A stretch of 12,595 bases of DNA from a virus. Below, in pieces: positions 71 through 3,139 of this stretch (position 1 is its first letter; every line of letters starts with the position of its first letter). The DNA lies in UHGV virus genome UHGV-1677753, one strand, 5' to 3'. The notes beneath the pieces are model-generated. The model was given only the letters and a program-made list of their open reading frames with translations. It made no database searches and was not told the origin of the DNA. The position numbers and the translations under genes are program-made.

Positions 71-119
71 ATACTGTTGGAAAATCAGCTTTTTTGGTTA
101 GCAACTTTTCCAACAGTAT
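71..119. repeat. Perfect 14-bp inverted repeat (ATACTGTTGGAAAA / TTTTCCAACAGTAT) with a 21-nt spacer, immediately abutting the adapter
   Basis: Positions 71-84 are the exact reverse complement of 106-119. It lies inside the minus-strand ORF and begins at the first genomic base after the adapter. Confidence 0.85.
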
Positions 120-263
120 TGACCATTCTTTTTCATTCCCTGCTTGCACAAAACCGATTTTACATGCTCTTGCGTGACTATTGATTAGCTCAGCATCAAC
201 GCCTTTGCCAAAAACGTATCCAACGCCACAATTGGAAGCAGTACAGTTAATCATTTTTATCAT
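71..263 (-). CDS. Hypothetical small Cys-containing protein in an AT-rich segment; 3' end not trustworthy (stop codon spans the adapter junction), so probably C-terminally truncated
   Basis: ORF track 69..263 (-), 64 aa, starting MIKMINCTASNCGVGYVFGKG. The ATG at 263 is preceded on the minus strand by AAGGA with about 7-nt spacing. The TAG stop is the reverse complement of 69-71, i.e. two adapter bases plus one genome base. Composition is markedly AT-rich compared with the phage genes. I recognise no family. Confidence 0.45.
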
Positions 264-368
264 CTTCTTATCCTTAACGTTCTTCGTGGGGGTGAGATTA
301 ATCTTAATGCACCTTGAGCGAATAGTCTTCTATAAAAATATATCACTGTAAAAAAACAATTTTTTCTT

Positions 369-398
369 ACAATACAATACATTACATTACATTACATT
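369..398. repeat. Pentanucleotide tandem repeat, (ACAAT)x2 then (ACATT)x4
   Basis: Read directly: ACAAT ACAAT ACATT ACATT ACATT ACATT at 369-398, in the AT-rich segment just upstream of the HNH ribosome-binding site. Confidence 0.9.
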
Positions 399-430
399 AA
401 TGGAATCAGTAATTACACAGGAGGAATAAC

Positions 431-781
431 ATTCCGCAACGAACCCCAAAAGCCTGCCGTGTTCGCGGCTGCCGCCATACCACCACTGACCCGTCAGGCT
501 ATTGCGAAAGCCACAAAAGCGAAGGCTGGAAGCAATACAAACCTGGACAATCCCGTCATCAGCGCGGCTACGGTTCGAAGTGGGACAGTATCCGCGCGCG
601 TGTCCTGAAGCGTGACAAAGGCCTGTGTCAGTTATGTCTGCGTTCTGGTGTGGTGCGTGAGGCGAAAACTGTTGACCACATCATCCCTAAAGCGCATGGC
701 GGCACTGATGCTGACAGTAATCTGCAGAGTCTGTGCTGGCCGTGTCATAAGGCGAAGACGGCCCGTGAACGGTTAAAGTGA
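431..781 (+). CDS. HNH endonuclease, terminase-associated; start codon uncertain (no in-frame ATG/GTG/TTG, proposed ATT start at 431)
   Basis: Open frame from the TAA at 410-412 to the TGA at 779-781 translates to ...PKACRVRGCRHTTTDPSGYCESH...VDHIIPKAHGGTDADSNLQSLCWPCHKAKTARERLK, with paired Cys zinc-finger-like motifs and the HNH core (DH...N...CxxCH). It sits directly upstream of the terminase small subunit. Not in the ORF track because there is no canonical start. AGGAGG at 419-424 lies 6 nt upstream of ATT 431. Confidence 0.75.
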   Translation: MPQRTPKACRVRGCRHTTTDPSGYCESHKSEGWKQYKPGQSRHQRGYGSKWDSIRARVLKRDKGLCQLCLRSGVVREAKTVDHIIPKAHGGTDADSNLQSLCWPCHKAKTARERLK

Positions 782-906: not shown

Positions 907-1392
907 ATGGCTGGAACGGCGGGGCGTTCCGGGCGTCGCCCCAAGCCAACGGCGCGCAAGGCGCTGGCCGGAAACCCCGGCAAGCGAGCCCTGAACAAAG
1001 ATGAACCTGTTTTTACGCCCATCAAAGGTGTTGAGCCACCGGAGTGGTTCGCTGAAGAAGATCTCCCTCTCGCCACGATCATGTGGCAACTGACAACCAA
1101 AGAACTCTGCGGTCAGGGCCTGCTGTGCGTGACTGACTTGGCGGTACTTGAGCGGTGGTGCGTGGCCTACGAGTTCTGGCGACGTGCCGTGAAAAATATT
1201 GCCAGACAGGGCAACACCATCACCGGTGCAATGGGTGGCATGGTCAAAAATCCGGAGCTGACCGCCAAAAAAGAACAGGAGTCCGAGATGAGCAGCACGG
1301 GGGCAATGCTCGGACTCGACCCCAGCAGCCGCCAGCGTCTGATTGGCCTGGCGGGGAAGAAGAAAGCCACTAACCCGTTTCTGACAATCTGA
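907..1392 (+). CDS. terS: Terminase small subunit (P27-like family)
   Basis: ORF track 898..1392. I place the start at ATG 907 ([30 protein letters not shown]...), with AGGAG at 894-898 about 8 nt upstream. The basic N-terminus and GNPGKR motif are typical of P27-type small terminases. Position is immediately upstream of terL. Confidence 0.85.
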
Positions 1393-1405
1393 AAATCATC
1401 GAATC

Positions 1406-3139
1406 ATGAGCCGGAAATCTTACCCCAACGTAAATGCTGCCAATCAGTATGCCCGGGATGTCGTGCGCGGAAAGATTGTGGCCTGCCAGTTTGTGATTCA
1501 GGCCTGCCAGCGCCATCTTGATGACCTGATGGCGGAAAAAAGTAAGTCGTTTCGTTACCGCTTCGACAAGGATCTGGCTGAACGGGCCGCCAAATTTATT
1601 CAGCTGTTGCCGCACACCAAGGGTGAGTGGGCATTTAAACGGATGCCCATCACGCTGGAGCCGTGGCAGCTCTTTGTGATCTGCTGCGCGTTTGGCTGGG
1701 TCAATAAAGGCTCCCGGCTGCGCCGCTTCCGTGAGGTGTATACCGAAATCCCCCGTAAGAACGGCAAATCGGCAATCTCTGCCGGTGTCGCCCTGTATTG
1801 TTTTGCCTGTGATAACGAGTTCGGCGCGGAAGTGTATTCCGGTGCCACGACGGAGAAACAGGCATGGGAAGTCTTTCGTCCGGCAAGACTGATGTGTAAA
1901 CGCACACCCATGCTGACGGAAGCGTTCGGGATTGAGGTTAACGCCTCAAACATGAACCGTCCGGAGGATGGTGCGCGTTTTGAACCGCTGATCGGTAACC
2001 CCGGTGATGGTTCATCACCCCACTGTGCGGTGGTGGATGAATATCACGAGCACGCCACAGATGCGCTTTACACCACGATGCTTACCGGGATGGGGGCGCG
2101 ACGTCAGCCACTGATGTGGGCTATCACTACCGCCGGGTACAACATTGAGGGGCCGTGCTACGACAAACGGCGGGAAGTCATCGAGATGCTCAACGGTTCG
2201 GTACCCAACGATGAACTGTTCGGGATCATCTATACCGTTGACGAAGGTGACGACTGGACCGACCCGCAGGTGCTGGAAAAAGCCAATCCAAATATTGGCG
2301 TGTCGGTTTATCGCGAATTTTTGTTAAGTCAGCAGCAGCGTGCGAAAAATAACGCCCGTCTGGCAAACGTCTTTAAAACAAAACACCTCAATATCTGGGT
2401 GTCGGCGCGTTCGGCGTATTTCAACCTGGTGAGCTGGCAGAGCTGCGAGGATAAATCACTGACTCTTGAGCAGTTCGAGGGGCAGCCGTGCATTCTGGCC
2501 TTTGACCTGGCGCGTAAGCTGGATATGAACAGCATGGCGCGACTTTATACCCGCGAGATTGACGGTAAAACGCATTACTACAGTGTGGCCCCGCGTTTCT
2601 GGGTACCGTATGACACGGTGTATAGCGTCGAGAAAAATGAAGATCGCCGGACAGCCGAACGCTTTCAGAAATGGGTGGAAATGGGCGTTCTGACCGTTAC
2701 CGATGGTGCAGAGGTGGATTATCGCTACATCCTCGAAGAGGCCAAAGCGGCGAACAAAATCAGCCCGGTCAGTGAGTCACCCATCGACCCTTTCGGAGCG
2801 ACCGGGCTGTCACATGACCTTGCTGATGAAGACCTGAATCCCGTTACTATCGTCCAGAACTTCGCCAATATGTCCGACCCGATGAAAGAGCTGGAGGCAG
2901 CGATTGAATCGGGACGCTTTCATCATGACGGCAATCCCATCATGACCTGGTGTATCGGCAATGTGGTCGGCAAAAACATGCCAGGTAACGATGATTTAGT
3001 GAAGCCCGTCAAAGAGCAGGCGGAAAACAAAATCGATGGTGCAGTTGCGCTGATTATGGCGGTTGGCAGAGCCATGCTGTACGAGAAAGAAGACATGCTG
3101 TCTGACCACATTGAGTCCTATGGGATCCGCTCGCTTTAA
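1406..3139 (+). CDS. terL: Terminase large subunit (ATPase plus nuclease)
   Basis: 577-aa ORF. It has a Walker A-like P-loop ([10 protein letters not shown]) and a Walker B-like motif ([10 protein letters not shown]). Size and position between terS and portal fit. Confidence 0.95.

Follow-up and report, generated by a model that had tools for sequence, protein, structure and literature searches.

The window analysed here, which is the whole 12,595-nucleotide stretch of the viral genome UHGV-1677753, raises the question of how an HNH endonuclease gene that has no canonical start codon could be translated, and whether it is a working gene or a remnant. On re-reading, the coordinates in a preliminary description of the locus proved exact: the HNH frame opens after the TAA at 410-412, and no ATG, GTG or TTG lies in frame before the cysteine codon at 455-457, which leaves the ATT at 431 as the only codon that can start there. 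This ATT (431-433) follows an AGGAGG at 419-424 and the six-nucleotide spacer AATAAC at 425-430, while a mini-ORF running from ATG 400 to the TAA at 427-429 ends 1 nt before it. The features at this junction are as follows.

431-781, plus strand: HNH endonuclease gene, 116 codons and TGA (Pfam, PHROG, PGAP and PDB matches)
431-433, plus strand: putative initiation codon ATT, where about 99 % of alleles have the homologous ATG
419-424, plus strand: perfect Shine-Dalgarno sequence AGGAGG, separated from the ATT by 6 nt (duplex with the anti-SD, -10.3 kcal/mol)
400-429, plus strand: nine-codon mini-ORF MESVITQEE, with its TAA 1 nt before the ATT (sequence; 23 copies compared)

The identity of the gene is supported by several matches. 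The product of 431-781 matches the Pfam HNH family PF01844 over residues 66-112 (E=1.1e-16, 61 bits against a cut-off of 21.4), PHROG 144 (E=4e-45) and the structure PDB 5H0M (E=4e-12, residues 2-114 aligned to 2-126), and the PGAP coding sequence WP_024188390.1 in an E. coli locus (L001) has the same coordinates. In the translation, a CxxxxC...CxxH zinc ribbon at the N-terminus precedes the HNH domain at the C-terminus, and zinc-binding pairs of the CxxC type, CQLC and CWPC, are visible. In the HNH frame after position 413, ATT 431 is the sole start-like codon before ATC 590 and CTG 605, and the first canonical start, GTG 650, falls within the HNH motif. The first zinc-ribbon cysteine codon is the TGC at 455-457, and because the zinc-ribbon cysteines occur from codon 9 onward, a start downstream of ATT 431 would entail the loss of that domain. 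The N-terminal CxxxxC zinc ribbon places the protein in Group 1 of the HNH proteins, whereas HK97 gp74, which is devoid of a zinc ribbon, belongs to Group 3 (PMC3592412). The closest solved relative is the HNH protein of a GVE2-like phage (5H0M/5H0O), which is collinear with the window protein as far as the C-terminus, starting at residue 2, and has the same CxxxxC...C and HNH motifs, although the 5H0M chain has 130 aa with insertions and the sequence similarity is low. The gene is of the packaging-associated HNH type, adjoining cos and the terminase genes; by analogy with HK97 gp74, a putative role in cos cleavage and packaging may be assigned to its product.

The genes that follow are those with which such an endonuclease would be expected to work.

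907-1392, plus strand: terminase small subunit, P27 family, functional partner of the HNH protein (Pfam Terminase_4, E=2.4e-21; PGAP annotation in L001)
1406-3139, plus strand: terminase large subunit, 577 aa, intact (PGAP annotation)

Both terminase genes are intact in carriers of the ATT allele; an apparent truncation of terL in two loci (L138 and L139) was set aside, as it reflects a different start call only and the 5' end is intact. The long plus-strand ORFs after terL correspond, in collinear order, to those annotated as portal, protease and capsid in a related locus (L134), in which the HNH gene stands upstream of terS and terL and is followed by the portal, the HK97 prohead protease and the major capsid protein. 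The overall order (lysis genes, HNH, cos region, terS, terL, portal, HK97-type protease, capsid) is thus that known for HK97 gp74 and SfV orf53. The end of the SfV genome (cos) lies 58 nt past the stop codon of the orthologous HNH gene, which corresponds to about position 839 of the window. In the gap between the HNH gene and terS (782-906), a T-run comes after an inverted repeat rich in G+C, GGGGCGGG...CCCGCCCC; the SfV-equivalent cos position falls inside this repeat, and the region is probably the cos region.

Three carrier prophages were read from end to end. They are SfV/e14-like myoviruses of about 37 kb with HK97-type head genes, appear complete from the integrase to the tail fibres, and are located at tRNA-Thr (thrW) next to proA in hosts that differ in their proA, phoE and crl alleles. 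The earlier designation of the element as an HK97-like prophage thus holds for its head and packaging genes, which are of the HK97/P27 type, while the element as a whole is an SfV/e14-like myovirus prophage at thrW. Differing integration sites, considered as a sign of mobility, were uninformative, all three carriers being located at thrW, the usual site for SfV-type phages.

The position of the start codon can be judged from a large family of homologues. Close relatives of the HNH gene are present in 1,216 of 5,426 complete E. coli genomes; the same 116-codon gene, starting with ATG (MPPRTPKAC...), is found in phages SfV, SfI, SfII, SfIV and ST64B, and further close relatives occur in SKA5 and other phages. 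The window gene shares 93 % DNA identity with SfV orf53. For most relatives, the DNA similarity to the window begins at about 429-441, i.e. at the start codon, and three relatives starting with ATG (E. coli prophages L002 and L003, and SfV orf53) are annotated as genes of 351 nt with their ATG at the very nucleotide occupied by the ATT (start alignment of the ATG relatives with the window: MPPRTPKACRVRGC versus (I/M)PQRTPKACRVRGC). In a sample of 120 IMG/VR contigs (loci L011-L130), picked solely by a 20-mer inside the HNH gene and thus unselected with respect to the start, 119 carried ATG and one carried ATT. Alignment with related HNH genes, which had been proposed as a check, therefore places their N-termini, beginning with ATG, at position 431, and the alignment of residue 2 with residue 2 of 5H0M and the PGAP annotation agree with this placement.

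These comparisons also bear on the suggestion that an inserted AT-rich segment had removed the native 5' end and left a pseudogene. No codon is missing: since the same gene starts with ATG at exactly this position in its relatives, there has been no 5' coding loss, and the only alteration at the start is the change of ATG to ATT, so that the reading of insertion and removal fails. All 116 codons are collinear with those of the ATG homologues, with no coding loss, frameshift or premature stop. The step in composition that had been reported at this point is real (G+C rises from about 0.23-0.29 to 0.55 at about 400-430). It is normal for this gene, however, because in the 120 IMG/VR contigs at least 37 different upstream sequences join the HNH gene exactly at its start codon. 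The HNH start codon is an unusually sharp mosaic boundary, and several of the upstream modules end in a terminator-like hairpin directly before a short GGAG.

The upstream part of the window belongs to one of these modules and contains the following features.

264-430, plus strand: AT-rich leader between the two genes (G+C about 0.23-0.33), which makes up the 3' part of the lineage module (composition)
371-399, plus strand: pentanucleotide tract (AATAC)2(ATTAC)3ATTA (copy-number comparison)
81-263, minus strand: 5' part of a divergent gene, cut by the contig end (WP_000594256.1, 112 aa)

The divergent gene is present in full at L001:1345-1683 on the minus strand, where it is AT-rich and lies between the lysis cassette and the HNH gene, oriented against the late operon. 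It belongs to the AT-rich module and was found only together with the ATT allele, in 12 of the 5,426 E. coli genomes; its product, WP_000594256.1, is without a match in Pfam, PHROG and PADLOC, and the gene is a moron. To the left of it, positions 1-70 of the window are an Illumina P7 indexed adapter (CAAGCAGAAGACGGCATACGAGAT-TGTTGACT-GTGACTGGAGTTCAGACGTGTGCTCTTCCGATCT), and positions 71-80 (ATACTGTTGG) repeat 110-119 in reverse complement, as a fold-back, and are absent from the native E. coli locus L001. The left end of the contig is an artefact of the library or the assembly, and real DNA begins at about 81, from which point the native window sequence is 99.9 % identical to an E. coli chromosome; the finding of the ATT is unaffected. 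Between the HNH gene and the divergent 112-aa gene, immediately 5' of the mini-ORF, the tract at 371-399 forms a simple repeat that is hypervariable: ATTAC is present once in 8, twice in 9 and three times in 6 of 23 copies of the lineage.

The lineage carrying ATT is defined by this single AT-rich upstream module; among the 5,426 E. coli genomes, exactly 12 have it. Every copy of the module that was read (about 21 independent copies) carries ATT, and none carries ATG. The ATT copies read comprise 7 of the 12 module-bearing E. coli chromosomes, four IMG/VR contigs, one metagenome contig, which may duplicate one of the four, and 10 further NCBI contexts. A search for the 3' end of the module (...CAGTAATTACACAGGAGGAATAACAT) upstream of an ATG or of a different gene gave no matches among the GTDB species representatives; elsewhere, a lone JGI metagenome contig has the same ATT-HNH junction, and within E. 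coli only the 12 known genomes were recovered. The exact protein of the ATT allele, written with Met1, is found on 198 contigs, and carriers have been sampled in Japan, Switzerland, China, the UK, the USA, St Kitts and elsewhere, from several animal hosts. Some carrier genomes hold two to three copies of the HNH family, while five carriers hold one copy only.

The reading frame has been preserved in this lineage. It is intact in 11 of the 12 ATT copies analysed, the exception being one deleted prophage, and the ATT gene exists in at least six nucleotide alleles, with no stop or frameshift in the intact copies read. All ATT copies share one sequence over the first 137 nt of the gene; for the 3' part there are at least five further recombinant versions, whose differences amount to about 28 synonymous and 9 non-synonymous changes. 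This synonymous excess does not prove selection on the ATT allele, since recombination with ATG alleles may have brought the variation in. ATT is retained in every lineage copy read and no reversion to ATG was seen among them, but the lineage is shallow and the wider family is 99 % ATG. The ATT allele is absent from 50,697 isolated-phage records, among which only about 0.25 occurrences would be expected at the frequency of the allele. The deleted prophage is that of E. coli BE2-5 (NZ_CP032986.1; L009:2841-3500), in which a deletion that takes out the terminase, head and tail genes fuses roughly the first 77 ATT-HNH codons in frame to the gene for baseplate assembly protein V; PGAP calls the resulting 219-aa fusion from the ATT, as a 'phage baseplate assembly protein domain-containing protein'. 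In another carrier (L136), the baseplate gene is frameshifted.

The ribosome-binding site of the ATT allele stands out within the family. When 47 distinct contexts, each taken from -35 to +35 around the start codon, were compared, the SD:anti-SD duplex of the ATT allele (-10.3 kcal/mol) was the strongest, ranking first of about 37 modules. For the ATG alleles, duplex energies lie between -8.8 and -0.7 kcal/mol (median about -5.6), and complementarity is in most of them confined to 3-4 nt, which suggests that the HNH gene is normally expressed at a low level. That the best Shine-Dalgarno sequence accompanies the sole non-AUG allele fits either a compensation for the weak codon or a strong site that made the mutation tolerable, with a single lineage providing the observation. 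The leader itself is otherwise inconspicuous: an Rfam search of it returned no match, its predicted fold is nothing unusual in comparison with shuffled sequence (z = -0.41), and searches for a sigma-70 promoter or a terminator gave nothing above the expectation from shuffled sequence.

Taken with the homologues, these observations show 431-781 to be a complete packaging HNH orthologue of SfV/HK97-type cos phages, and they make it probable that in a rare prophage lineage it is translated from AUU. The initiator tRNA would start at AUU 431 by near-cognate pairing, and the AGGAGG located 6 nt upstream, in an A/U-rich leader predicted to be no more structured than shuffled sequence, would position the ribosome. 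The outcome would be the normal 116-aa HNH protein in a small amount. Natural AUU starts have been proven for infC and pcnB, and in E. coli reporters AUU yields about 1-2 % of the output of AUG (bioRxiv 10.1101/063800). IF3 discriminates against codons such as AUU (PMC9723500), and HK97 gp74 is a stimulator of cos cleavage by TerL that is needed for packaging (PMC9410871, citing Kala et al. 2014, PNAS). A low yield may nevertheless be sufficient for the phage, because the HNH protein only assists the terminase in cos cleavage and because the ATG alleles themselves have weak ribosome-binding sites; the strong Shine-Dalgarno sequence would offset the weakness of the AUU codon. We infer the start of the ribosome at the ATT, the low but sufficient yield and the compensation by the Shine-Dalgarno sequence from these comparisons of sequence. 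The rarity of the allele, about 1 % of the HNH family, speaks against initiation at AUU.

The same rarity is the point of departure for the alternative that we regard as the most serious, if still rather unlikely, namely that the allele is hypomorphic or dead. According to this explanation, a mutation of ATG to ATT, or a recombination joint, crippled the expression of the HNH gene; the resident prophage packages poorly or not at all, or uses the HNH protein of another prophage, and the ORF is still intact because the event is recent or because of recombination. An AUU output of only 1-2 % of that of AUG (bioRxiv 10.1101/063800) would be in keeping with this, as would the signs of decay in carriers (the deletion in L009 and the baseplate frameshift in L136), the location of all three checked carriers at the same thrW, which is compatible with spread by host recombination, and the two to three HNH copies of some carriers, which could complement in trans. 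No isolated phage carries the ATT, though at a frequency of 1 % none would be expected. On the other hand, the intact copies read are free of stops and frameshifts across at least six nucleotide alleles, the head module is intact, terS and terL included, the protein is present on 198 contigs from diverse hosts and countries, and five carriers own just one copy of the family. The lack of any observed reversion to ATG, and the presence of the best Shine-Dalgarno sequence of the family beside the ATT, which would be unexpected for a random knockout, likewise argue against a dead gene.

The remaining explanations concern the mini-ORF and the quality of the sequence. Ribosomes might terminate at the TAA at 427-429 and reinitiate 1 nt further on at the AUU, as the preliminary description had envisaged; HNH synthesis would then be driven by the mini-ORF rather than by the binding of 30S subunits de novo. 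Such coupling could add to initiation at AUU with the aid of the AGGAGG, and we consider it improbable. The short distance between stop and start, the location of the Shine-Dalgarno sequence inside the mini-ORF and the fact that the mini-ORF is open in all 23 copies (MESVITQEE in 16 and MKSVITQEE in 7, the one change being E2K) are in its favour, but the variation of the leader among lineage copies is too small for a conservation test of the mini-ORF. Moreover, the sequence contains no Shine-Dalgarno motif upstream of ATG 400, and of 29 unrelated upstream modules, 9 have a mini-ORF whose end is no more than a few nucleotides from the HNH start (in 3 of the 29 this mini-ORF begins with ATG). 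As similar mini-ORFs thus occur at chance level in other modules, the one in the window is unremarkable; the comparison of the 29 modules lends no support to coupling as a general property of the HNH gene, and the mini-ORF is probably fortuitous, being most simply explained by the AT-rich sequence and a TAA that falls in the spacer between the Shine-Dalgarno sequence and the start. A programmed +1 frameshift, in which translation would begin at ATG 400 and shift at GAA-TAA (424-429) to give MESVITQEE-NIPQR..., is very improbable. The HNH frame is indeed +1 relative to the mini-ORF, and the in-frame stop with an AGGAGG nearby superficially resembles prfB, but there is no slippery codon, the tRNA-Glu on GAA cannot re-pair on AAU, the Shine-Dalgarno sequence, which in prfB is placed 3 nt upstream of the P-site codon, here overlaps that codon, and all homologues, including the one with a solved structure, begin at the position of the ATT. 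Finally, an error of sequencing or assembly that conceals a true ATG might be suspected because the contig end is artefactual (adapter and fold-back, 1-80). The identical ATT with its flanks recurs in about 21 independent assemblies, complete chromosomes among them, and therefore the ATT is not a sequencing error; the chance of such an error is practically negligible.

The initiation at AUU that we favour has well-known counterparts. As in infC, which encodes IF3, and pcnB, the AUU occupies the start-codon position of a full-length and otherwise normal gene. In the HNH gene the ribosome-binding site is correctly spaced, and there is no alternative canonical start upstream of the essential domains. 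A low output and a sensitivity to proofreading by IF3 are to be expected for the HNH AUU start as for infC and pcnB (bioRxiv 10.1101/063800; PMC9723500). The AUU of infC is conserved across species. In infC it is part of an autoregulatory loop, whereas the HNH AUU is a minority allele of about 1 % that is known here from DNA comparisons. In contrast to HK97 gp74 and SfV orf53, whose gene order it shares, the window gene starts with ATT. The arrangement of a short upstream ORF that stops beside a downstream start and contains an internal Shine-Dalgarno-like sequence recalls prfB and termination-reinitiation systems. The +1 frameshift of prfB depends on a slippery P-site codon and a Shine-Dalgarno sequence about 3 nt upstream. 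The mini-ORF has neither the slippery codon nor the Shine-Dalgarno spacing of prfB, it is without a Shine-Dalgarno sequence of its own, and it is no more frequent than expected by chance.

The choice of start codon also affects how the gene is recorded. PGAP already annotates the HNH gene from the ATT (WP_024188390.1 and WP_024256831.1 in NCBI RefSeq), and the exact 116-aa protein is recorded from NCBI (PGAP) sources only, while ATG alleles of the same cluster are also recorded from JGI/IMG, Logan and ENA calls. Older NCBI records (e.g. EKV78663.1) contain a 43-aa product that starts at GTG 650. Gene callers limited to ATG, GTG and TTG evidently drop the HNH gene or shorten it to 43 aa, and because they lose the ATT gene, a prophage may be mis-scored as lacking the HNH protein that HK97-type terminases need. 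A literature search retrieved no paper that discusses the ATT start of the HNH gene.

The ATT start of the HNH gene is a further, modest example of a known phenomenon, and the protein itself is an ordinary member of the packaging-HNH family; the understanding of phage packaging and of translation initiation is unchanged by it. A more far-reaching interpretation, to which we give little credence, is that the combination of AUU with a maximal Shine-Dalgarno sequence is adaptive, keeping HNH synthesis low and dependent on IF3 proofreading, such that cos cleavage would be dosed or timed by the initiation fidelity of the host. If this were true, E. coli would have a third AUU start with a functional meaning, and the gene would be a phage counterpart of the infC type of AUU control. 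Should the ATT be used, a natural AUU-initiated gene would be added to the short confirmed E. coli list of infC and pcnB, and the HNH family would provide a natural experiment in which AUG behind dozens of weak ribosome-binding sites may be compared with AUU behind a perfect one.
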